Shown here: one piece after another, positions 6,730 through 64,000 of the stretch | Numbering within the stretch: the stretch's first letter is position 1 | Layout of the letters: each line of letters begins with the position of its first letter | Assembly (NCBI GenBank): GCA_964016885.1 | Contig: OZ024755.1 | Location: 25,854,001 to 25,918,000, forward strand | DNA: 64,000 nt | Direction: 5' to 3' | Source of the DNA: Eledone cirrhosa | Taxonomy: Eukaryota | The notes under the pieces: generated by a model | What the model saw: the letters and a program-made list of their open reading frames with translations, nothing else | Told to the model about the DNA's origin: nothing | Databases searched by the model: none | Translations under genes and position numbers: made by a program

Positions 6730-9700
6730 GTAAGTTTTACATGTGTCTGTCTCTTATTCTGCTTCCCTTGCTATTTTAAACAACGGCAGTATATATAATA
6801 ACAATAAACACTTATCTGGTGCCAACGAAGTTTGTTTAACGAAGAATGAATAAGACTCCTTTACCCTCTGTAACACTAGAAATAATATAATAATTATATA
6901 TAAGAATAATCTATTCTATACTATAATAATTGTTTCTACTTTTGGCACAAGGTAAGCAATTACCCAGTACATTACTGGTACTTTATCAACCCCCGTAAGG
7001 ATGAAAGGCAAAGTTGACCTCGGCGGGATTTTAACTCAGAATGGAAAGGGCCGTAACTCTATGCGTCAAAGCATGACGTCCGACCTTCTACCGATACTGC
7101 CAATCCACCGCCCTTCTATAATGTTTCTGACTTAGGCACAAGGCCAACAATATATATATATAATGGAGGCACATGGCTTAGTGGTTAGTGCATTGGGCTT
7201 GCAATCGAAAGGTTGTGAGTTCAATTCTCAGACGGGTGATGTGTTGTTTCCTTGAGCAAAAGACACCTTATTTCACATTGCTCCAGTTTACTCAGCTGTA
7301 GAAATGAGATGATAGGGACTGGGGTCCATATCATTCCACTGTAAAGTGATCGTGGAGGTGCCACGGCAAAAAAGCACCCAGCACTCACTGTAAATGAGGT
7401 TGGTGTTAGGAAGGGCATCCAGCTGTAGAAATCAAGCCAGAATCAGTTCCCGTCCCACCCTTGCAAGCAGGGAAAAGCGGACGTAAAATGATGATGATGA
7501 TATATATCATCATCATCATCATTTTACATCCGCTGATTCTGGCTTGATTTCTACAGCTGGATGCCCTTCCTAACACCAACCTCATTTACAGTGAGTGCTG
7601 GGTGCTTTTTTTTTTTTGTCGTGGCACCTCCACGACCACTTTGCAGTGGAATGATAAGGACCCCAGTCCCTATCATCTCATTTCTACAGCTGAGTAAACT
7701 GGAGCAATGTGAAATAAAGTGTCTTGCTCAAGGAAACAACACATCACCCGGTCTGAGAATTGAACTCACAACCTTTCGATTGCAAGCCCAATGCACTAAC
7801 CACTAAGCCATGTGCCTCTATATATATATAGGTAGAAGTGGTAACACAACAGTTAGTTCACCATACCAAGAACAATTGTTTCACCTTACTGGATCTTCAG
7901 CTCATAATGGTCATGGTGATACGGAACAGGAAGAACAACTGTATGAACGTATGAATGCGCATACGCAGAAACGGTCTCTTCACCCAAGCAATACATACGT
8001 TCATATGGTTGTTCTTCCTAACCATTATGAGCTGAAGATCCGCTAAGGTGAAACAATTGTTCTCGGTATGGTGAACTAACTGTTGTGTTACCACTTCTAC
8101 CTAACTCGTCCCATGGACTGAGTGCTCTATCACTACGGATATTACCTCCCAGTGTTCTACCTCTATCATCATCATCATCATTTTACGTCTGCTCTTCTCT
8201 GCTCGCAAGGGTGGGACGGGTCTTATTCAGCACAGCATCTCTCCACTCGTCACGGTCCTTCGTCATCTCCACCGTGAGCTTCAACGATCTGAGGTCTGTT
8301 CTCACCACCTCCGCCCATGTTTTTTGTGGTCTACCTCTAACACATCTTCCTTCAACTGGCATTTCCTGGCACCTCTTCAACCATCGGTCATCCTCCATGC
8401 GCATCACATGTCCATACCACCTCAGTCTCCTCTCCCGTACACTACATTCTATCCCTCTCAGACACAGTTTCTCTCTCAACACATTCATGCTGGGTCGTTC
8501 ATGCACATTGACATTGCACATCCAACGGAGCATACTTGCCTCAATTCTCTCCAGCCGTCACATATCCTCTGCAGTTGCTGCCCATGTCTCACTACCATGC
8601 AGCATCGCACTCCTCACACAGGCATCATACAACCGGCCTTTCATACGCAGGGAGAAACCCTTCTTCGTCAGCAGAGGAAGCAGCTCCCTAAACTTCTTCC
8701 AACCCGTCCTTATTCTAGATACTATGGCTTCGGAACACCCTCCTCCCATGTTAATCTGATCTCCTAGGGACCAGAAGCTCTCCACTACTTCTATAGCACC
8801 CTCCTGCATTTGAAAAATGTGTCTATCAATGCAACTTTTACTGTCTAATTTCCCTGTACATCTACTGCATACATATTTCTCCCTACCTGTTAGTTTGCCT
8901 GCTACCCCGCTACATCTCTTGTGTACCCAGGATCTGCATTGTGTGCATTTTATAGAATTTATGCCAGTTCCTTTTCTGCATATCGAACATGACCATTTCC
9001 CTGACGGAATCAGAGTTTTGTCCTCTTTTCTACTCATCAACACTTTTGTCTTAGCTAGGTTCACTCTCAGTCCTCTTGCTTCCAACTGCTGTTTCCATAG
9101 CCAGAATTTATTCTCTAGCTCCTCTACTGATTCTGCTATAAGAACCAGATCGTCAGCATAGAGAAGTTCCCATGGACAGCCAGTCTTAAACTCATCTGTT
9201 ATGGCTTGGAGGACTATAATGAACAAGAGTGGGCTGAGGACCGAACCTTGATGTACTCCTACTTGTATCTGGAATTCTTCACTAAACTCCATTCCTACCC
9301 TGACTTTACTGAGAGTACCTCTGTACAAAGTTTGCACTGTCCTAACAAGCCATTCCTCAACACCTAGTTTCCTTAGGGACCACCAGATGACAGATCAGGG
9401 TACCCTATCAAAGGCCTTCTCTGGGTCAACAAAGGCTAAGTATTGTGGCTTATTTTTCTCTAAGAACCTCTCTTGCAATTGTCTCACCAAGAAGAGGGCA
9501 TCTGTTGTACTCTTCCCAGGCACAAAACCAAACTGCATCTCATCTAGTTTGACCCTTTCTCTAATTAGTTGTGCTAATATCCTTTCTGCCACTTTCATAA
9601 CCTGATCCATCATATATATATGCTAACCTTGGTGGGATTTGAGTTCAGAACGTAAAGAGCCATAACTCTATGCTGCTGAGCATGTTGTTGGACACTCTAC

Positions 9701-18150: not shown

Positions 18151-18969
18151 TAGAAGGTAATCAGCCGACATTTCCCTCAAGTTTTATCATTCAACTGAAG
18201 TTTGGGTCTGGTCAAATTGGTCAGTGTTTTTATGTTATTTTCGTTTTTAGAGACAAAATATGATTTCTTTGAAAACCAACCATGTTGGAACAAAATAAAA
18301 ATATATATATTTTTTATATTTTTGATTAGTGAAGTGATTTCTTGTCTTTGCCCACTTATTCCTGAGAGAGTCGTGGGGTTAGAGTCCTCAAACACTCTCG
18401 CCAATGGGTCCTGTCAGAAGCAACCGCCTCCAACTCATCCGGCTGGATCCCCAAGCATGACCAACCAAGCTCATGGATGTTATCCGACCATCTTGCTCAG
18501 GGACTACCCCTGGGTCTCCTACATATTGGCTTCACCCGTAAAATCTGCCCGGTGATTCTTTCCTTAGCCATTCTAACCTCATGCCCATAGTATCGGAGCT
18601 GTAATCTCTCCCTGAAGTGACTCTCTGATCTCTGAGCTACACACTTTATCGAGTAACGTTACTCCAATGACCTGTTGATTTGACGAAACTACTCTCTTCC
18701 CTGTACATCATGTAGGTATCAGTAAGAATGGATTTCCTTGGTAAAGCAGTTGCATTATCAAGGATTGAACTGATGGGTCACAAATCTATGGTTTAGCATT
18801 TTAGCCACACTGCCACCAAACCTGATGACAGCTATACAATGAAAATGTTAGAATAAAAAAATATATATATTATGAAAGTGGAATAATTTAAAAGTTACCA
18901 GGCATTACTGTAGACATTGGACATTGTGGTAGATTCAAATCTCACACATTCAATGATGATATATATATA

Positions 18970-21280
18970 ACCGTGATATTGTCGGGGAGAAGTGTGTACT
19001 TAACGATGATGGCGTACTTGCCATCACTGACGCTGATAAGAAGGTAGCTTGGAAGTGTCACTACGAAAGGCTACTAAATGAGGAGAATAAATGGGAGAAA
19101 GACAGTCTCCCCCACATCGATCCAATAGAGGGACCAGCAGTGTTAGTCGAAGGTAGTATAATAAGTAAGGCAATCAAAGATATGAAGACGGGTAAGGCGG
19201 CTGGGCCTTCGGAAATAGTTGCTGAGATGCTGAAAGCCTCCGGTACGGTGGGACACACCATGGTCACCCGGATAGTAAACCAAGTCATACAGAATGGGGT
19301 TGTTCCGAAGGAGTGGCGTAGCAGCATCATCGTTAACTGTTACAAGGGTAAAGGAGACGCCCTAGATAGGAGTAACTATAGAGGCATTAAATTAATCGAC
19401 CAGGTCATGAAGGTCACGGAAAAAGTAATAGCGCAACTAATCAGAGAGAGAATTGATCTAGATGAAATGCAGTTCGGGTTTGTGTCAGGCAAAAGTACCA
19501 CAGACGCTCTTTTCATTGTATGACAACTACAGGAGAAGTACCTAGCTAAAAGTAAACCCCTATACTTAGCTTTTGTCGACTTGGAGAAAGCCTTCGACAG
19601 AGTCCCCCGTTCCATTATCTGGTGGGCTCTTAGAAAACTAGGTGTTGACGAATGGCTTGTGAGAGCCATACAAGCCATGTATAAAGAAACAGTCAGCAAG
19701 GTTAGAATTAACAATGAATATAGTGAAGAGTTTAGTGTAAAAGTTGGTGTCCATCAGGGCTCTGTTCTTAGCCCCCTACTATTTATTATTGCCCTTCAGG
19801 CTATAACAGAGGAGTTCAAGACCGGCTGCCCATGGGAACTCCTATACGCAAATGATCTAACGCTCATAGCTGAATCAATGGCCGAGCTAGAGAAGAAATT
19901 CCAAACATGGAAGCATGGCCTAGAATCAAAAGGCCTTAAAATTAACCTGGCTAAGACTAAAGTTCTAGTTTGTAGGAAAGAAAATAAGGCGCCAGTCCCC
20001 TCCGGGAAATGGCCATGCTCAGTGTGTAGGAAAGGCGTAGGTAGAAACTCCATTTTATGTCCCAAATGCAAAGTATGGGTGCATAAAAGATGTAGTGGGA
20101 TCACAGGTAAGCTAACTAAGAACACAGATTTTACATGTGGCCGGTGCTCTGGTGCAATAAGTAGCAGCAAGTGCCCACAAATACTAACTCTTTCAATTGC
20201 GCAGAGGGTTCTATAGAAATAGTGGACAGCTTCCGTTACCTGGGTGACAAAATCAGCAGTGGGGGAGGGTGCTCTGAAAGTACAGTAGCTAGAGTCAGAA
20301 CTGGATGGAAAAAGATCAGAGAGCTTATACCACTATAAGCCGCTAAAGGGTTCTCCCTAAAAATGAAAGGCAGGTTGTATGATGCCTGCATACGAACAGC
20401 AATGTTGCATGGCAGTGAGACCTGGGCATTGTGTGCAGAGGATATACGCAGACTAGAGAGGAACGAAGCTTGCATGCTCCGCTGGATGTGTAATAGTAAT
20501 ATACGTGAACGGCAAAGCATAAACGAACTAAGGAAAAAATTAGAAATAAGAGGGATCAGATGTTGTTTACTCGAGAGAAGGCTACGTTGGTATGGTCACG
20601 TGATGCGCATGAAAGACGACAGCTGTATAACAAAGTGCAGGGCAATAAAGATAGATGGTAGCCACGGAGTAGGTAGACCCAGGAAAACCTGGGACGAGCT
20701 GATAAATTCCGACCTCACACACTTACACCTCTCCAAGACAATGTCACTGGACCGAGACCTTTGGCAGTACTCAGTAACAGAGAAGACCCGCCTTACCTAA
20801 ATACAAAGTAAAACCTACTAGTCAGTAGGCATCTCTAACAAAATACACCCCCGTCCCACCCCATCCACACCGCCCCCTTCAATGCAAAGTTATGTTGGTG
20901 CCACAACATCCAGGCCGAAACAAACGAGATCGTGTAAGTGTCACGACAAAAAAACACACAGTCCACGCTGTAATGTGGCCGTGTAGGCAACACGGTAAAA
21001 ACCTCCCAGTCCCACACTGTAAATGTGGTTGGTGTTAGGAAGGGCATCCAGCTGTAGAAAACACGCCAGACAGTCCACGCTGTAATGTGGCCGTGTAGGC
21101 AACACAGTAAAAACCTCCCAGCCCCACACTGTAAATGTGGTTGGTGTTAGGAAGGACATCCAGCTGTAGAAAACCCGGTCCTATGCGAGCAAGACAACCA
21201 CTCTTGCCTCAAGTGGGAAAAACCCCCGTCCAAACCCATGCAAGCGTGGAACAGGGACGTTAAACGATGATGATGATGAT
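18970..21280 (+). mobile_element. 5'-truncated RTE-clade LINE (RT with stops and a frameshift, 3'UTR, (ATG)n tail)
   Basis: [51 protein letters not shown]; TGA at 19521. Confidence 0.93.
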
Positions 21281-40863: not shown

Positions 40864-42933
40864 TATGAGCCTTACCTCCTATTCACTCAACATCCCTCGC
40901 TTTCTATGTCTGTCTCTCTCAGGGGCTCCTCTGTATTTTTCTGCCTTTCTCTCCCTCCCCACTCTCTCTCTCTGTCTTCACAACTGACCCCCGCTTACCA
41001 CCACGCTATCTCCTTTTTCTCTCTCCCCTCACCTCTTATCTTCTACGTTCTCTCCTGGAATAAAATTGCGGGTGTGCAAAATTCGATCAATTTTACAGTC
41101 CAAGGGGAAGTAATTCTGTAAACAGCCCCTCCTACCACCACACTATCTACTTTCTGTCTCTCTCACCAAACAAACGTAAACACTCCCACCTCACCTCTTC
41201 TCCGTTCTCCTGGAATAAAATTACAGTCAAGTGGTAGTAATTCTGTAAACATACAGAAAGACACCAAGTCCCTACTTGGGTGCTCTACCAGGTAAAAATA
41301 TCTCTGACAAGATAAATAAAGTAATAAAACCTGACTATCAAACATCAATGTATTCGCCATAATTACATTCACAACTTTATAATGAAAAGTAAGATTAAAC
41401 CCTAAACTTCATGAAATTCCGGTAAAAGTATTCGTTTTTGTCTTAGCAGACGATGTTACAAGTGTGTGTGTTTATATGTAAATATACCTGTAAACATATG
41501 TATATATTTTTGTATGTATATATAAATTGTCTTGTTTACAAAAATATTTTTCTAATGTGTTTAATATTTCATATTTTTTCGAATGCTTTTCTTCCATTTA
41601 ATCACGACATAACTCTCAACTCACTCCCCTTCATTTACTTACTCTCCCTCCCCTCTCATACAGCCTCTTCTTTCTCTCTTTTCCCCTTCCTTATTTTTCT
41701 CTTACTCTGTCGTTGTTTCCCTCCTATAGTAACTCTCTCTCTCTTACTTTGACTTTCTACTTCCCACTCTTTCTCTCGTGAAATAAAATGTTTTATACCT
41801 CCACAGAATTATAATTTTTTTTTTTTTTCCTTCATAAAATTACTTGATGTTACCCACATTGACAAACTTACCCCTTTTATGACGGGTCCCGCTCGATTGT
41901 ACTGGAGCAGCCCCCCCCCCCCCCCCACACACACACATACACGTATATTCATAGGGTCTGTTGTTTAAACCAGGGATCATCTCTGCGGAAGCAAACTCGA
42001 ACTAAGGACGGCCTACCCTTGATTAACCCAACAAAGTATCGTTTTATGTATCGAAGATGACACTGTGCACTGTATCTTTCAGTGGGTTTTTTTTAGGGAC
42101 ATTTGGCTGCTATTGCTAGCAGCAACAAGGAAAGTCCCTAAACGATCTCTCATAGCAGACAAATCTTCCTAAAAGATAAACACCCAAATGTCTTTAAATA
42201 CATATAAAGTTAACTCATGAAACTTGCCTTGAATGTATTCCATCATAACAACACATTTACCTTCCCAGCATCTTGTACAGTCAAAGGTAAGTAGGTATCT
42301 TCATATACAATATATATATACATATATCAGTTCAAAATCCGGCAACCTAGAGGCTGGTTAATCCACAGTAATCCGTGTTCAGGGTAATTATCCAGGTTCG
42401 AATGGCAGGTGAGCCACGAAGGCGTGGAAAAATAGTTGATAAATGAAACAAAACAAACACAGGGATGCAAAAATACAAAGTCATATTAGGTTCAAGCTTG
42501 GAGGAAGTGGACGTGAGCTTGAATTTTAACAGGCTAATTATTTGTTAAATATATGTCTATGGTACTAAAACATCACTGCATCTCTCCACCTTTAAACATT
42601 AATAACATGAAATTAGAAAACCCTTGGAGTTCCCTCCAAATACTAAGCCTCACTTTCACTAAGGATCTCTCATGTCTAATGTACATTACTAAACATGGCC
42701 GTAACTGCTTTTAACAGACTGGCTCTTCTCGTCAGCATTGTTTGTTTAAGGATTAAATTATATCAAAGGCAAATAGAAGAAAACGGTTTATATAGGAATG
42801 TTGGGGCTTCCCTCTAATGATTTTTGAGGTAAACTCACATACTCGAAAGATGGCTCCCGGTGATAGGGAGGCTAAGTCGTGAAATAAGCAAGTATCGTAT
42901 CTTTACTAAGAGCATCAACCGAACCGTGTGTGC

Positions 42934-53739: not shown

Positions 53740-54470
53740 CTCTCTAGTAATGGTGCCATGAAAATGCAACCTGTACACCCTATAAGGTGGTTGGTGACAG
53801 GAAAGGCACCCCACTGTAGAAAGCATGCCTTAAAAGGGTTGGGGGGACACCCCATTTGTATTATTGGCACAACAATTTCTCTAGTGTTTGTGATCTACAT
53901 GATAAACACACCCAGTACATGCTGCAAAATGGTTTGTGATAGGAAGGGTACCCAGCTATAGAAAGTTTGCCAAACAAAGAGCTAGGAGGACCCTGTGTCA
54001 AAGACACAATAACCTCTACTGTAGAACGTGGGACCATACATGAGCAAGATGCAAATCCCCAACCTGTCTAAGGGGTCAGTAGCCTCGCTTCTGGACTGAC
54101 GCGGTCTTTGAAGATCCATCCAATCCTTGCTAGTGAGGAAAGTGGATGTTAAATGATGATGATGATGATTATAAAGGACATGACAGCCTCCTTAGTGCTG
54201 GTGATCTACACAATAAAATAACCTGGTACACACTGTAAAGTCTTTGGTGTTAGGAAGGGCATCCAACCATAGAAAGCTTGCCAAACAAGGGGTTAGGAGG
54301 ATCTTTCAGTTTGTGTCAAAAGACACAACTTCTCCTCTGCTCTCAATATGACTGTATATAAACAGGATACAGACACTTTGGCCTTTCCGGGAGGTCAGTA
54401 ACCCCACTTCTATGTAGACCCATCCAACCCTTGCTAGCAGGGGAAATAGATATTAAATGATAATGATGAT
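53740..54470 (+). mobile_element. Old SINE/RTE-tail fragments ending in (ATG)n
   Basis: ggtgttaggaagggcatcca..tagaaa and ccaacccttgctag..gttaaatgatgatg. Confidence 0.6.
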
Positions 54471-54526
54471 GATATGTTTAGTCAAAACTAATTGGATATC
54501 TCCATTTATATATTTGTGTGTATATC

Positions 54527-54557
<31 letters not shown>

Positions 54558-54581
54558 CATGTGTGTGTGTGTGTATGAGTG

Positions 54582-54635
<54 letters not shown>

Positions 54636-54830
54636 CACTCACAAGCAGTGCTGAAAACGTAACCCAGTTCAACCTGTCACATAGTCGGGTCATCGGCAAT
54701 TAAGCCAGTAACCCCACCAAGCTTGCTTGCTCAGTGAGGAGAGTGATTTTTGGACACCCAGCGAGATGAAAAACAAAAAACCTGTCAAATGATGAAGGAA
54801 ATCGTAAGAATCAATGGGAATCCAATAATA

Positions 54831-54891
<61 letters not shown>

Positions 54892-55584
54892 TGTGTGTTT
54901 GTGACTGTATGTATGGATATAGGAGCATGTGTATACATATATGCAGGTTGGTGTTTTAGTGAGCAGTAAGCCCACTGGGAGTGTGAGACCCCTGATCCCT
55001 GTTAGGATATCTCTCTAAGAGAACGAAACTCTGATGTAAAAGCTGCGGCTCAATAGTAATTGGTGATGTTGATCTGTTCTTTTTGGATTATAGCTATTGT
55101 TGCTCAGTGAGTGGGATTGGTCCATTGCAAGGCCTTTCCTCACTATAAAAAGCTTCATGCACAGGCATCACTCAATATCGTAAGATCTTTGAATGATGTG
55201 AATGGCTGGCTGTAACCTTAAAATGTGACCTTATCATTGAATGCTCATAACAGTATTGCCAGAAGAGGCCAAGAATGTCATGGCGAGTTCAGGAATTGAA
55301 CTCATGACCTTAAAATGATAAGTCAAACACCCTAAACCACAGAATTACTATTATAAAATAATATATCAGAAGTGAACAAAAGAGGATAAGTCTGCTTTAA
55401 TAACCAACTACATTCTACCAGAATGCAGTTGAGTTTTTTTTTTCCCATTTTTGGAGGGTGAATTAAATAAATAAAATTAACAACAACAGTAACAACAACA
55501 GCAAGCTGCAACATCACACATAAGTCCATTTGTATTGTCCAATATATACACCTCCTGGTCACTTTGGTAGGCTTTGGTGATAGT

Positions 55585-55693
55585 TTAAGCAAAGTACATG
55601 ACCTTAATGGTGTCAGGGTGAACTGCAATTTCATTAGACATTGATGTTGGTGTCCGTTCCTCTTGAGATGTTGACTGGTGGCTGCCTTCACCG
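55585..55693 (-). CDS. AGO2: Argonaute last coding exon ([16 protein letters not shown]...TIKVMYFA*)
   Basis: Canonical AGO C-terminus MYFA then TAA. Confidence 0.95.
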
Positions 55694-58191
55694 CTGAAAC
55701 AATAAACAAACAGACATTTGCTGTGGCTACCTTCACTGTTACAGTGACAGACAGATTCACAATGGAGATGGGCCACTATCTAGACCAGTGTTTCTCAACG
55801 TTTGATATGGTACTTCAGGATGGGAGCATATACACTATACTATATACCATACTACACATAATACTATGTAGTATAGTATATATTATACAATACATAATGC
55901 TATACACTATTCTATGTACTATACTATACACTATATGCTGTGCTATATACTACACTATACATTATACTATATACCATGCTAGATACTATACTATACACAA
56001 TGTTATATACTATATCATATATTACACAGGTGGTGGATTGGCAGTATCGGTAGAGAGTCTGACGCCATGCTTTGCAGCAAAGAGTTACAACCCTTTATGG
56101 TCTGAGTTCAAATCCCGCCAAGGTTAACTTTGCCTTTCATCCTTATGAGTTGATTAGTACCAGTAATGCACTGGGTAATTGCTGGCTTTGTGCCAAAAGT
56201 AGAAACAATTATATATTACACTATATGCTATGCTACATACTATACTATATACACTATGCTATATACTACATTATATGCCATGCTACACACTATACTATAT
56301 ACTGTATTATAAACTACATTATATGCTATATACTAACTTTGTCCGATCATGGCAAAGTACACATTGGGGGGAGGGGGGGGGGAGCAAAAGTGGTGAGAAA
56401 TACTGCCCTAGTCAATCACATTGACCTAGTAAATTACTGGTACTTATTTTATCAAGCTTAGAAGAATGAAAGCCAGAATTAATTGTGATTAACCCTTTAG
56501 CATTTACATTTACATTATATATACTATGGTATTTTCGTGGTAAAGGCTTTGTCTTACATAATTATCTCACATAATATTGAATCTATGAGGTTTTGATGTT
56601 ATTTATTTTGCGAACAATACCTTAATATCAGTATGAGCAGCCAGTTATCACCGGTTTGAACAGAAAAAAGTGAGAGAATTCTGGCCGGATATGGCCGGTT
56701 TAAATGCTAAAGAGTTAAGGAGTTTATTTGTAATCACATAGTTTCAGCTTCAATCCCACTGAAGGGGATACTGGACAGGTATCTCCTACTACAGCTTGAC
56801 CAGTTGGCTTCTGAGAGGAATTTGGTGGACGGAAACTGTGTTATTTAAGTATTGATCTGTGTGTGTTTGTTTATATCCTGTAACTTAGCAATTTGACAAA
56901 AAGATCGATAAAAGATCAATATGAAAAGATAAATATTGGGGTTGATAAATAATCAACTAAATCTCTTCAACACAGTGTCCCAGCATGGCCACAGTCTAAT
57001 GACTGAAACCAATAAAATAAGTACTGAGGTTGAAATAATCAACTAAATAGATTCTGGCAGTGCTCCAGCATGGCCACAGTTTAACAGCTAAAATCAGTAA
57101 AATAAGTACTGGGTTGATATAATTATCTAAATCCCTTCATACTGTGCTCCAGAATGGCCACAGTAATAAATACCAGGGTTGATATAATCAACTAAATCCT
57201 TTCAAGACAGTGCCCCGGCATGGCCACAGTCTAATGACTGAAACCAGTAAAAGAGTAGGAAGAGAGTGGAAGGAAGATGTAATATTTACCTGTCGTGGTC
57301 TTTCTCAACCAGGTGGTAACGAGCTCTGAAAGCTACCAGGTGGGCATAGTATGCTGGTGCTGGTATCGACACACTTCGAGTGCATCGAGCATATGTATGG
57401 CACAGTTGATATGTCAATGTCTGCAGTTCATCTGCATTAAATCTGTTGTCATCCCAGAGAACATGGTAATGTGATGGTCGACTTGTCCCCTAGAGAGATA
57501 GAGTGAGAGGTAGAGAGAAAGTGAGAGATTGAGTGGTAGGGCGATAGAGGGAGGTCGGGAATAATGGGAGATAGAGGGAGGTCGGGAATAATGGGAGATA
57601 GAGAGAGGTAAAAGCAGTAGAAAGAGATAAATAGAAATAGGTATAATGATAGAGAAACAGCAACGTTCTCAAATGTACTGGCCACTCTGTGATATAGTCA
57701 GAGGAAAATAGAGAAAAATAAAAGTTTTTGTTACAAATATTTTTTTCTTTGATAGCAAGGCAACCCATATGTTTATTGTATATAAACATATAGAATATAT
57801 TTTCATAGACACCTCTATTATGCTTAAATTCTGTCTTAGTGCTACTGCAAATTATAATGTCTTGCCCGTATGAGCAAGACAAGGTCAGCTGACCAGGCAC
57901 TGCCCACAACAGGACAACCCATCTAACTCAGAATGGACGTAAAATGGTGATGGTGATGATATATATATTATAATTTGTATATATATATATATATATATAT
58001 AGGAAAAAGTATGCCCCGACGGCAGAGCTCAAGCCGTTTCAACGGCTATTTCTAGTCTAGAAATAGCCGTCGAAACGGCTTGAGCTCTGCCGTCGGGGGT
58101 CATACTTTTTCCTATTACCCACTCTACTACCCTAAGTATTGAGTACTCTGGTGCGTTATGGTCCATCTGGTTCCTTACCACAATTCCTTTG

Positions 58192-58250
<59 letters not shown>

Positions 58251-61200
58251 AAAAGAGTCAGGACCCCGACGGCTGAGCTCTGGTCGTTTCGACAGCTAGG
58301 TATATATTTGTGCCCTAAACTAGGAGGACACTCGCTGTTTCAATTGTTAAAATTTGTGAGTACTGCAACCTTTCATATGTTAATCAGTTAATACAATAAT
58401 TACATAATTTTCATAGCTTTAGGCTTCTGGCTGGGATGATCCAAACAAATTTGTTGAGTTAATTGTAAACAAGATCGAAATCACTGGATATCGATCTAAA
58501 CCCCTATTATCATATATATATATATATATATACACACACATATATAAATATATAAGATGGCGGTTAAACGATGATGATGATATGATGATGGTGATATATA
58601 TATTGTAAATAATACATTTAAAAATATCCTTATCGTAAATAATACATTTAAAAATATCCTTATCGTAGTTGTTTCTAATTAAACCATGGAATTAGCATGG
58701 GATCAGCTAATGTATATTAAAAAAAGAAAAGGCCCAAGACAGCAAAGGTGACATACATTACAAGAATTAATGAGAGTATTTAAATATAACCTACCTGGAT
58801 ACCTGTATGACTGCAAAGGTAGAAGTCAAATTCTGTTGGATGACAAATACCATGATCTACTGTAGTTCCAGCTGGGATATTGCCACTGCGACCAACCTTA
58901 CAAAATATAGAAACATATAGCATACATTATATATATATATATATATGAGGTGTGTCATAAAAGAAACAAGCCTGAGGTCATGAAAAAAAAAATCTTAATC
59001 CAAACTACAAATTTTCTTCTTCAAAATAATCCCCCTCGAGTTTAATGCACTTTCCCATTTTTCTCCCGTCATGCTGCCATGCACCCCTGGAAGGAATCTC
59101 TTAGGATTCTCAGCAGCTCTGTCATCACGGCCCTCTTGATGGCTCATTCACTTGGTCTCCGGGTCATACTTGAAGATCCAGTGATAACACTCCACAGCAA
59201 GTCTGGTTTAGTTTCATGATGGTCAAGGATGTACTGACACACCTGCATGTGTCGCTCCTTTTGGTCATTGTTCAGCACCATCTTCATGCAGATCTTCCAC
59301 ATGCCCAAATCTTCAGTGATAATCTTCCAAAATTTTCTACACTGGTTCATGCCCAGCTCAATTCTTATCAGTCAAACAGTCATCCGGTGATCACAACACA
59401 CCACCTGCCTGACTCGCACAACGTTGAAGGCCTTCCTCTCCTGGGGGTCATCTTTGAACCTTTTAAGCCACTCGAAAGCCCATGAGTGCAACATCGTCTC
59501 ATCTCTGAACACTTACTGCAGTATTCCAAGTGCTTCTGACGGAGTAATACTATACTATATATTTTCAACAGTAATACTATACTATATATTTTCAACAGTA
59601 ATACTATACTATATGATTTCAGCAGTAATACTATACTATATATTTTCAACAGTAATACTATACTATATATTTTCAGCAGTAATACTATACTATATGATTT
59701 CAGCAGTAATACTATACTATATATTTTCAACAGTAATACTATACTATATATTTTCAGCAGTAATACTATACTATATGATTTCAACAGTCATACTATACTA
59801 TACAATATATTTTCAACAGTAATACTATACTACACAGACGGTTTATCGTCTTTTTATCCAAGCAAAGCTAGGTACGTCAGCTATGTATATATATATCTGG
59901 ATGCCATAGAACACGCCAATGGTAGCCGGGCGGACCAGCTAGTATATAATATTTTGGACATTATTTATGGGATGACCTGATATATATATATATATATACA
60001 CAAAATACTCACCTGATCTTGTTCATTTGCACAGAATAACCTGGTGTGATGTCTCTTCTGTACTACAATAAAGGTAATTCCAGGTTGGTAAGCTAGATCT
60101 AGGTCAATACAAGCCTGCCGTACAGCTCTCAGTTCATAGCTCAGTACCTAGATAGTAAACAACACACATATATATATATATATATGAAAGAGTGGACGTA
60201 AAAACAATGATGATGATGTATATACAGGTAAAATTCCGTTATAACAAATTTTTCAGTTCCTGGCCACATGCTCAATGTGTTTCGGTCGATCTCGTTATAA
60301 AGAACTGGAAATTTGTAATAAATTGAAGTGAAAACCAACAGGTGTGTGTGTTTCCATTAGCAGAATGACCCTCACAAAGTATAGCAATATATATATATAT
60401 ATGGATGTAAAAAGGAAACAGAAATAATTAAGTAACAACACTTTACGTACAACTTCTTTCGCAAGTGTTTAATTAACACTTGAAATAATAGAAAAAGACT
60501 CAACGTTTTGGACACTAGTCCTTCATCAGAAGATAGAATGAGAAATAAAAGATGAAATAGAAAGATAGAGAGCAAGAAGAGGAAGGAACGGAAAAAAAAA
60601 ATTTGAGAAAAAAAACACATGTTCATATATAGCAGATGTTAAACGATAATGAAACATGAAGGTACGTGACTTAGTGGTGAAGGTGTTGACCTTAAAATTG
60701 TAATGTTGGTTCAATTCTTGGTGTGGGTGGCACATTGTATTTTTGAGCAAAACAATTTCACATTACTCTGATCCACTCAACAGATAATTATTAGGTGGAT
60801 TGGCAGTATCGGTAGAGGGTCGGACGCCATGCTTTGCAGCACAGTTACGTCCCTTTACGGATTCCGTTCAAATCCCGCCGAGGTTAACTTTGCCTTTCAT
60901 CCTTACGGGGTCGATAAAATAAAGTACCAGTAATACACTGGGATAATTGCTGGCCTTGTGCCAAAAGTAGAAACAATTATTACCAGCAGTAGCTGGAAGT
61001 TAACCTTGTGATGGACTGGTGTCCTGTCCCGGGGAAAATTTTGAACTCTCAATCACTTAACACATATGGAACAGGGACAAGCTCTGACCTAATGATCCTC
61101 AGAGCTTGGGACAGACTTTAACAATATATAATGTATAGGACAGCCCTCAGCTAATAACTCAGTACCTTGATGATGATGATAATGATGGAGGTGGTGGTGA

Positions 61201-63957
61201 TGATGGTGGTGGTGATGGGGATGGTGATGATGATGAACAAAGTGATTTACCTGCTGAAACTGCCCTTCACTAACACCATTTCTATAGAAGACAATTCGAG
61301 CTGGTTTAAACATGGTACATTTGTAAAACTCCATTAAAAGTTCCTTGACCATCAGGGCAAGTTCTTGGATGATTTCTTTTCTGTGTTCTTGGACACGAAC
61401 CGAAGCAGAGTAACGACTTGGGTGGCCATCCATACTACCAACAACCTGAAAAGGACACAATATACAAAAACTATTTAAACCTTTTTATGAAACCACCTGA
61501 AACAGACTTAGATTCTAGATTCTATGATGCAAAACTTTATTTTAAATTACCGTGTAGATTCTTATATAAGCTGAGAAAAATGTGACAAAAAAATTCAATG
61601 GTACAATGGAGGAGGGGAGTGGGGCTTTTATTCTAGGTCAATATTTTGCTGATATTTACCAGCTTCAAATTTCTATGTAAATGAGGTGCTAAAATATTTT
61701 TGCTTTGGAAGTAAATGTTACACTGCTTTCACTTTGGAGGTAAATGTTACATTGCTTTCACATAGGAGTTAACTATTAAACTGGTTTCACTTTTGACATG
61801 AAATTCATATTTCGTATTGTTTTTGATATGTTATGAATGAATATGGCCTTCAAAATGGTTGGAATTTGGTAAAAAAATTATTACATATTGGTGATAATGA
61901 TGATGATGGTCGTGGTGGTGATAATGATGATGATGATGGTAGTGGTTATTGGTGATGATGATGGTAGTGACGGTAAATGATAATGATGATGATGATGATA
62001 ATGATGATGATGGTGATAATGATCAAATATAACTCTAAGTAATGATTTTACCGCTGCAATGGAAGGTTTGCTAGCATCTCCCGCAGGCGGATGGGTAACA
62101 TCAGCTCCAATAAATATGACAGGTTCTCGAAATATGGCCGGTCTGTGACAAAGAAATAGAAACCACATGAGAGAAAGATTAGAAAATAAAAGAATATACA
62201 AGTTCAGCTGATAATATTTCATGGAAAATAGAACAAAGAAAATATATGACATTTGTGTGTCCCAAAATAAATGACCACAACAATGACTGATCCCTATAAA
62301 TAATAGTTGGGAAAACTAAGTAAAAAACCTCTAGGGATGAAAAAAGTCAGCAACTTTTTTTTATAAAAACAAAACAGGCAAGATTAAATATTTTACAGGT
62401 TTCAGTGGCCATGCTGGAGCACTATTCTTTTACTGGTTTCAGTCATTAGACTGTGGCCATGCTTCAGCACTGTTCTTTTACTGGTTTCAGTCAGACTGTG
62501 GCCATGCTGGGGCACTGTTCTTTTACTGTTTTCAGTCATTAGACTGTGACCATGCTGGGGTACTGTTCTTTTACAGGTTTCAGTCATTGAACTGTGGTTA
62601 TGGTGGGTGGGGCATCACACTCTTTTACTGGTGTCATGACAAAAAGTACCCAGTTCACCCTACAAAGTGCTCAGATGGACGTTAAACGATGATGATGATG
62701 ATGATGATGATTCACCATGTAAAGTGATTGATGTTAGAAAGGACATCCAGCCATAGAAACCAAGCCAAAAAAACATCATATGAGCAAAACTTAGTCACCT
62801 GACCAGTTTGGCCACATTAAGTGACAGCTTGTCAAACTCTTGCAAGCATGGAAAACAGTTAGGATTATCTAGCAATATTAACATCAAATTATAGTGTCTT
62901 ATCATCTTGTAATACTGAGTTTAAATCCCATATTCTATGGTCTCAGTTTAAAACCAGTATACCCTAATTGTCTTGGTCAATTTTTGCCATTGAATAGGAT
63001 AGATATCACAGCTAATGAATAACAGTCCATCCATCATGACAACCATCACACAAAGACAGACATCATCTTTATCCCTTCCCCTTTTTTTTTAATACTTAAT
63101 TTGGTTATTATCTTTTTTTTTATATTTTCATCATTGTATAACTTCTGTCTGTAAAATATAGTTGACATAATGTTTATGTCTAACAGATAACAAAATATTT
63201 CCATCACTGTATAACTTCTGTCTCTAAAATATAGTTGACATAATGTTTATGTCTAACAGATAACAAAATATTTCCATCACTGTATAACTTCTGTCTCTAA
63301 AATATAGTTGACATAATGTTTATGTCTAACAGATAACAAAATATTTCCATCATTGTATAACTTGTCTATAATATATAGTTGACATAATGTTTATGTCTAA
63401 CAGATAACAAAATATTTCCATCATTGTATAACTTCTGTCTGTAATATATAGTTGACATAATGTTTATGTCGAACAGATAACAAAGTATTTCCATCATTGT
63501 ATAACTTCTGTCTGTAATATATAGTTGACATAACGCGCAACCAGACAGCACCTAAGAAGATACCAACATGGACATGTCGCAACCAACGACAGAGGCCGAG
63601 ATTTCAGAGCTGCAGGCTATGATCAGAGGGCGGGCTGGTCAAATTAAAGCCCTCTCGAATCAAGTAGAGAACTTGACCTTTCAAACACACTGGTGACGCA
63701 GTATAACAGATAACAAAAAAAAAATTAGACATCTCTGTGAATTACAACATATTCTACTCTTCACAGATTTACTATAATGTTAACTGATGGAACTTACCGA
63801 ATACTTGGCAGCAAGATACTGTTGATGCCACCCAATTTGACATTTATCTTCAGACATAAATTGGAGAGAGTCTGTGGTGACGTCCGGGTGACATTTCTGG
63901 CTTGGACACATTGAGTTGCAAGGCCAAATGTGATGTCACCAACACGTTTAACTTCAG
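55585..63957 (-). CDS. AGO2: Argonaute (AGO clade, miRNA-type), 3' part: MID end plus PIWI domain; 7 exons, 5' end outside the window
   Basis: Spliced translation gives [120 protein letters not shown]. The exact orthologue (AGO1/AGO2 naming) cannot be resolved here. Confidence 0.95.
55825..56335. repeat. Low-complexity tactata repeat interrupted by SINE family 1 (56030-56212)
   Basis: Directly visible. Confidence 0.8.
56925..57255 (+). repeat. Tandemly repeated SINE 3' tail units (reverse-oriented array at 62395-62600)
   Basis: cagtgccccagcatggccacagtctaatgactgaaaccagtaaaa repeated. Confidence 0.75.
57290..57489 (-). CDS. AGO2: Argonaute exon ([15 protein letters not shown]...[19 protein letters not shown])
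   Basis: 200 nt; contains the catalytic His. Confidence 0.95.
58001..58113. repeat. Near-perfect palindrome of about 110 bp in an Argonaute intron
   Basis: aggaaaaagtatg.ccccgacggcagagctcaagccgtttc...gaaacggcttgagctctgccgtcgggg.catactttttcct. Confidence 0.9.
58795..58896 (-). CDS. AGO2: Argonaute exon ([34 protein letters not shown])
   Basis: 102 nt, aag acceptor and gtagg donor. Confidence 0.93.
58945..59545 (-). mobile_element. Degenerate mariner-type DNA transposon
   Basis: TA plus tgagg terminus; - strand remnants [34 protein letters not shown]. Confidence 0.75.
59543..59833. repeat. 27-bp minisatellite (CAGTAATACTATACTATATATTTTCAA), about 10 units
   Basis: Directly visible. Confidence 0.95.
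60013..60147 (-). CDS. AGO2: Argonaute exon ([13 protein letters not shown]...[17 protein letters not shown])
   Basis: 135 nt, tag acceptor and gtgag donor. Confidence 0.95.
60794..60982 (+). mobile_element. SINE family 1
   Basis: Matches the 20-210 element. Confidence 0.82.
61251..61445 (-). CDS. AGO2: Argonaute exon ([12 protein letters not shown]...[13 protein letters not shown])
   Basis: 195 nt, AG/GT borders. Confidence 0.95.
62052..62142 (-). CDS. AGO2: Argonaute exon ([30 protein letters not shown])
   Basis: 91 nt; contains the first catalytic Asp. Confidence 0.95.
63128..63533. repeat. 73-bp minisatellite, about 5.5 units
   Basis: Units start at about 63135, 63208, 63281 and onward. 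Confidence 0.93.
63798..63957 (-). CDS. AGO2: Argonaute exon ([19 protein letters not shown]...[13 protein letters not shown])
   Basis: 160 nt, tttcag acceptor and gtaag donor on the - strand. Confidence 0.95.
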
Positions 63958-64000
63958 CTGAAATAAAGACAAATCTGTATAAACTAGTAAGGTGTTGGTA

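Follow-up and report, generated by a model that had tools for sequence, protein, structure and literature searches.

The window, that is the whole stretch of 64,000 nucleotides of Eledone cirrhosa DNA that was analysed (contig OZ024755.1, positions 25,854,001 to 25,918,000; assembly GCA_964016885.1), carries within its last 8.4 kb the seven coding exons at the 3' end of an Argonaute (AGO) gene read on the minus strand (Table 1). Thirteen more coding exons lie outside the window, as far as 13.3 kb upstream. Assembled from the window and the neighbouring genome stretches, the frame codes for 855 amino acids in 20 exons separated by 19 GT-AG introns, has no internal stop and shares 97.8% amino acid sequence identity with the Octopus sinensis orthologue P0003; the proline-rich first ~74 residues lie outside the located frame.

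Table 1. Exons and sites of the Argonaute gene within the window (positions are those of the window).
Feature	Position	Strand	Basis
MID/PIWI exon (EVKRVG...ILLPSI)	63798..63957	-	exon model
PIWI exon with D597 (GAT 62102-62100, GADV)	62052..62142	-	exon model
PIWI exon with E637 (61376-61374, RKEII) and N669; 195 nt, AG/GT ends	61251..61445	-	exon model; joined to the upstream exon in spliced contig X4
Candidate stem, arms 61318-61307 and 61284-61273; chance-level	61273..61318	-	folding, pairing counts
AAT, Asn at the third catalytic position (human AGO2 D669)	61278..61280	-	alignment to 4OLA
PIWI exon VLSYELR...NEQDQ	60013..60147	-	exon model
PIWI exon ending CSHTGIQ, with A754T (octopod-specific)	58795..58896	-	exon model
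PIWI exon with V791A (paralogue-specific) and H807 (CAC 57342-57340, YAHL)	57290..57489	-	exon model
Last coding exon, ends MYFA-stop	55585..55693	-	exon model

The introns of the gene hold tandem arrays and a dispersed repeat of ~50 nt (window positions 63100-63540, 62400-62570 with 56970-57260, and 59540-59830). The dispersed repeat, present in inverted orientation ~5 kb apart, flanks the PIWI exons on both sides and shows no pairing with the catalytic exon. The 25 longest of 2050 inverted-repeat pairs found in 54000-64000 are all simple or intronic repeats. Elsewhere in the window, at 8558-9394 (minus strand) and 18960-20216 (plus strand), broken reverse-transcriptase fragments (Pfam RVT_1) precede a PHD finger (Pfam PHD) and are likely copies of non-LTR retrotransposons.

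The Pfam families of all six domains N, L1, PAZ, L2, MID and PIWI score above cut-off in P0003 and in the decapodiform transcript P0034. The best PDB matches are human AGO1-4, and the protein is nested among lophotrochozoan AGOs in a tree of 49 rows; the supplement tree of PMC11114477 gives the same placement in the microRNA class, with the microRNA Argonautes of molluscs, arthropods and vertebrates. P0003 aligns with human AGO2 (4OLA) without gaps through the PIWI domain, at an offset of 70 residues, which sets the Asn opposite D669. The complete DEDH tetrad is thus absent, the four residues being D-E-N-H (D597, E637, N669, H807). The exon model and this alignment bear out the initial annotation, which had described an AAT codon at this place in an intact frame that keeps GADV, KEII and YAHL. 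The loop behind the third tetrad residue, which plays a role in slicing, is retained in the AGO2-like form GVSEGQF and not in the AGO1-like form GVPEGQL.

Searches of the species' own genome with two exons each return two AGO-clade loci, one on C15 (Asn) and one on C23 (GAT, Asp), and the C23 gene shows a matching exon series. Both the Asn copy and the Asp paralogue are found in O. sinensis, O. vulgaris, O. bimaculoides, Argonauta hians and Sepia pharaonis. YRNG is present as well in Euprymna scolopes g41641, according to the supplement alignment of PMC11114477, and a second AGO of this species has been reported (PMC8125070). The catalytic motif, examined in 181 proteins, occurs 172 times with 161 Asp, 10 Asn and 1 Ser, and 13 proteins have no such motif. 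All 10 Asn occurrences belong to the Asn paralogue, to which two short fragments that also read Asn can be added. Asp is the ancestral residue (33/33 outgroups). A metagenome scan gave 39 Argonaute loci (34 with Asp, 1 with Gly and 4 in which the motif was unmatched), none of them from a coleoid (best identity 77%). Asn is accordingly common to the coleoid orthologues and Asp is found in the sister copy; this comparison agrees with the slicer-dead paralogue that the initial annotation had kept as its fallback.

The age of the pair was estimated from two trees of 49 and 20 rows, chosen from matches with isoforms omitted and with no Nautilus, siAGO, PIWI or Deroceras laeve rows, obtained by quick searches with SH-aLRT values and no bootstrap. 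The Asn group and the Asp group each form one clade (SH-aLRT 99/97 with 49 rows, 100/99 with 20 rows), and the two are sisters with a support of 100. Since both clades hold octopods and a decapodiform, the duplication and the change to Asn would predate the octopus-squid split, which has been put at nearly 300 My (PMC9699675). On this topology a duplication before that split is the likely origin of the Asn/Asp pair. It may even predate coleoids, Nautilus being outside the sampling. A duplication in octopods only was rejected when the octopod copies were forced together (AU p 3e-86).

What the Asn copy might do is suggested by mutants of the same position. Human AGO2 D669N serves as a catalytically inactive control (PMC9154749), and guide-target ternary complexes of Thermus thermophilus Argonaute D546N, altered in the third tetrad residue, keep the target intact (PMC5587774). 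By analogy with both, the Asn copy is predicted to be inactive in the cleavage of fully paired targets. We hold with considerable though not full confidence that it is a non-slicing microRNA effector beside a slicing Asp sister. The Asn copy would bind microRNAs and repress their targets without cutting them, and any slicing would likely be done by the sister Asp copy. MicroRNA loading, and repression via GW182-type partners, would be expected from the six-domain architecture and the retained guide-pocket residues. Y529, K533, Q545 and K566, which we take to be the pocket for the guide 5' phosphate, are all kept in the alignment to 4OLA, with K550R nearby in octopods. Among the residues that presumably form the tryptophan pockets for GW182 (predicted binding), F587, L650, F653, Y654, F659, K660, R688, L694 and Y698 are kept and four are changed (A620G, I651M, R658M, E695D). 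R658 is lost in both coleoid paralogues (Met or Leu; window 61313-61311) and the Asp copy also has F659Y, which dates the changes around the tryptophan pockets to the time before the duplication or shortly after it. The three other tetrad residues and the GVSEGQF loop would have remained intact for about 300 My; they may have been kept for folding and RNA binding, and a model of reactivation would predict the same. The tidy split between a slicer and a non-slicer may fail in decapodiforms, given the E637D change of Sepia described below.

The alternative that survives best, which we nevertheless consider improbable, is that the non-slicing copy has acquired a function of its own, with its own guides, partners or tissue (coleoid-specific neural microRNAs, for example), or a role in holding or buffering targets. 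It draws on the faster evolution of the Asn copy. Octopod and decapodiform Asn proteins are 89.5% identical over 838 amino acids, against 99.5% for the Asp copies, and the branch lengths in the 49-row tree are 0.17 and 0.21 for the Asn copy versus 0.083 and about 0 for the Asp copy. At 434 columns invariant in 33 outgroups the Asn copies have 16 changes in octopods and 10 in the decapodiform, the Asp copies 4 and 5. Six of these changes (E236D, E378D, E502D, D669N, E695D, V791A), plus R506T/Q, are common to octopod and decapodiform Asn copies. Other changes in near-invariant RNA-binding regions are found in octopods only: D358E, A367E, D374N, K550R and A754T in human numbering (P0003 428-444, 620 and 824, in exons both outside and inside the window), with D358E and A367E near helix 7. 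A new role, in place of plain microRNA repression, could lie behind D358E, A367E and K550R. The octopod Asn copies also carry a long proline/glycine-rich N-terminal extension, and the coleoid lineage gained 43 microRNA families (PMC9699675). However, the shared changes are mostly conservative (E to D), the guide 5' pocket is retained, as are most residues of the tryptophan pockets, and the excess of changes is as expected after release from slicing. In the decapodiform Asn transcripts P0004, P0033, P0034 and P0183, three inserted residues (VRT) follow GQFQQ; to judge from the genomic read-through of P0183, a splice donor would lie 9 nt further downstream, directly behind the catalytic loop.

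Apart from a non-slicing effector, the initial annotation had put forward a slicer switched by RNA editing, a reading to which we give a very low probability. ADAR would turn A61280 into inosine in a sizeable share of the transcripts, mainly neural ones, and thereby restore Asp and slicer activity, a restorative edit as Jiang and Zhang use the term. Its boldest form, in which neural editing of the Asn codon restores the slicer on demand in some tissue or at some temperature, appears just as doubtful. A single A-to-G change at the first codon position does convert AAT to GAT, which encodes the ancestral Asp, and the remaining active-site residues, including the loop, are intact. In coleoids, editing is more frequent and reaches higher levels at restorative sites than at synonymous ones, though with a median level below 2.5% (PMC6881472), and ADAR has been proven to edit a squid AGO2 mRNA (PMC4384741). 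The stem proposed around A61280 does have 11 of its 12 pairs, with A61280 opposite G61311, a duplex energy of -6.5 kcal/mol and mostly pair probabilities of 0.6-0.84 when only 61330-61260 is folded; it is unstable in the context of the exon, with probabilities that fall to 0.02 or below once the exon is folded entire and to about 0 when still longer stretches (three were used) are folded. Among the 249 As of six exons, 32 have within 60 nt a 12-bp stem with no more than one mismatch, so that this one is at chance level. The catalytic exon has no advantage in folding over shuffled sequence, since 144 of 200 shuffles do as well (z +0.60). The best duplex for A61280 within 3 kb on each side reaches -23.4 kcal/mol, a value equalled or bettered by 39 of 40 random exonic As, and no stable double-stranded context was predicted within that distance. 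Moreover, the 5' arm of the stem encodes C-T-M in octopods and S-T-L in Sepia, which by codon logic breaks a pair beside the target; the octopod arm is thus likely younger than the Asn.

Transcript records point the same way. Four sequencing runs were compared over 61251-61480 and two of them gave contigs covering the Asn codon. Contig X1 (504 nt), which contains intron and is possibly the assembly's own source, has the same letters at the codon. Contig X4, from another sample, is 3366 nt long with a depth of 30 and has only A at 61280, as far as contigs, which drop minor variants, can tell. Its alignment to the window breaks off at the exon edge, and its loose end matches 62053-62082 in the upstream exon, which identifies X4 as spliced RNA. 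The spliced Logan proteins P0004, P0033 and P0034, the last on 22 contigs, read Asn, and the three Asn clusters with their 11 members (two short and off the site) include none bearing Asp, whereas for the Asp paralogue such records do differ between Ser and Gly (P0045 versus P0046). Argonaute entries were not found in the supplements of PMC8382921 and PMC7703385, nor in the searched files of the supplement of PMC9699675. Published squid edits better fit the Asp paralogue, as detailed below, and this paralogue already provides a separate gene with Asp. With no credible duplex, spliced records that read Asn and an Asp paralogue in place, the proposed A-to-I switch is left unsupported. The Asn is a fixed feature of the genome that calls for no editing to explain it, although there may be low-level neural editing of the Asn codon hidden in contigs that lose minor variants.

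The remaining alternative mentioned in the initial annotation, a sequencing or assembly error, to which a private allele or a decaying pseudogene can be joined, has a vanishingly small probability: a conserved codon that differs by one base, G to A, in a single assembly may reflect an error, but the Asn is conserved across seven species, six of them named besides Eledone cirrhosa, in which contigs X1 and X4 have no differing letter and the 855-residue frame is intact.

The Asp paralogue has features of its own. The squid AGO2 amplicon of Alon et al. (2015) has two validated edits 40 nt apart, at 42278/177855 reads (24%) and 162785/173778 (94%), with values near zero in DNA (PMC4384741). The amplicon begins downstream of the catalytic codon. 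Compared with the Eledone paralogues, the squid primers have 0 mismatches to the Asp copy versus 3 to the Asn copy in the exon part of one primer, and 3 versus 4 and 4 versus 5 in the others. It is likely that the two edits lie in the Asp-paralogue counterpart of the exon VLSYELR...NEQDQ. The octopus exon has three pairs of As 40 nt apart, one of which combines a synonymous position in GAA with the AGT codon of Ser697. P0045 has Gly at 697, as have oyster, limpet and abalone, and its near-twin P0046 has Ser. From this comparison across species, Ser697Gly is likely a restorative A-to-I edit in the Asp copy; the Gly of P0045 could also be an allele or come from another species. Ser697 adjoins Y698, and the Asp-paralogue exon lies near C23 2330945-2331079.

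The Asp paralogue of Sepia reads HRQDII, which amounts to E637D, at a position where octopods and 33/33 outgroups have Glu. The same change is seen in P0006, P0036, P0045, P0046 and P0184, which are Sepia and decapodiform-type records of the Asp paralogue. A Glu-to-Asp change is reportedly one of the two that impair teleost Ago2, according to the zebrafish study of Chen, Sive and Bartel in 2017. Two substitutions in teleost Ago2 are confirmed by PMC7765534, whose text does not name them. Judged from the residue, E637D may weaken slicing in the sole remaining candidate slicer, and cuttlefish may be devoid of any canonical DEDH Argonaute. A dead copy that is functionally specialised, combined with impaired slicing in decapodiforms, is conceivable and on balance rather unlikely. 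We give similarly limited credence to a broader scenario in which coleoids, like vertebrates, combined a large neural microRNA expansion with an AGO duplication, slicing being shed in one copy and weakened by E637D in the second copy of cuttlefish and perhaps squid, with ADAR tuning the pair.

In the open-access literature we found no paper remarking on the catalytic Asn of coleoids. The pair itself is already in published trees, in which the passages dealing with it leave the catalytic change unremarked. Coleoids are invertebrates with a microRNA expansion of vertebrate scale (PMC9699675), and an old, conserved non-slicing AGO next to a slicing one would parallel, by convergence, the arrangement of vertebrate AGO1-4. 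Molluscs are described as having neither a siRNA-class Argonaute nor Dicer-2 (passages of PMC11114477); siRNA knockdown in cephalopods must then run through the AGO pair. Knockdown in cephalopods is predicted to vary with the proportion of one paralogue to the other and, given E637D in the Asp copy of cuttlefish, may be weaker there.

Published trees that include Euprymna scolopes AGO1/AGO2 (PMC8125070) and the O. bimaculoides pair (PMC11114477) contain the same two genes. PMC8125070, in the passage concerned, credits octopus with one Argonaute-like protein; two are on record in the present comparison. With respect to the restorative recoding of coleoids (PMC6881472), the likely Ser697Gly of the Asp copy fits the published pattern and the Asn codon is without an observed edit in the sources covered. 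The slug Deroceras laeve has AGO2a and AGO2b, one of which carries a point mutation in the tetrad and is predicted to be non-cleaving (PMC12506671). It is a gastropod, and our trees, which hold no slug sequences, place the AGOs of gastropods outside the coleoid pair; the loss in the slug is therefore likely independent. In the nematode Strongyloides ratti, XP_024500338.1 also reads YRNG at the D669 position, as the coleoid Asn copy does, and its site has decayed further (Tyr at the H807 position), independently of coleoids. Ser or Gly occupies the position in metagenome Argonautes (P0010 and one of the 39 loci), which together with the Strongyloides Asn indicates that the D669 residue was lost repeatedly.

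Vertebrates offer further likenesses. The coleoid Asn copy shares with human AGO2 the six domains, a PIWI domain that aligns without gaps, D597, E637 and H807, and the GVSEGQF loop. Human D669N is a laboratory mutant, whereas its coleoid equivalent arose in nature, is fixed throughout coleoids and affects a single one of the two paralogues. Vertebrates have non-slicing AGO paralogues of their own, and AGO4 has lost the D669 position; the AGO1-type change of H to R is present in P0113. Vertebrate AGO1 and AGO4 beside AGO2 are likewise microRNA-class paralogues in which the tetrad was lost next to one that is intact. The coleoid pair differs from them in having arisen by an independent duplication, according to the 49-row tree, and in the change of one tetrad residue, to Asn.
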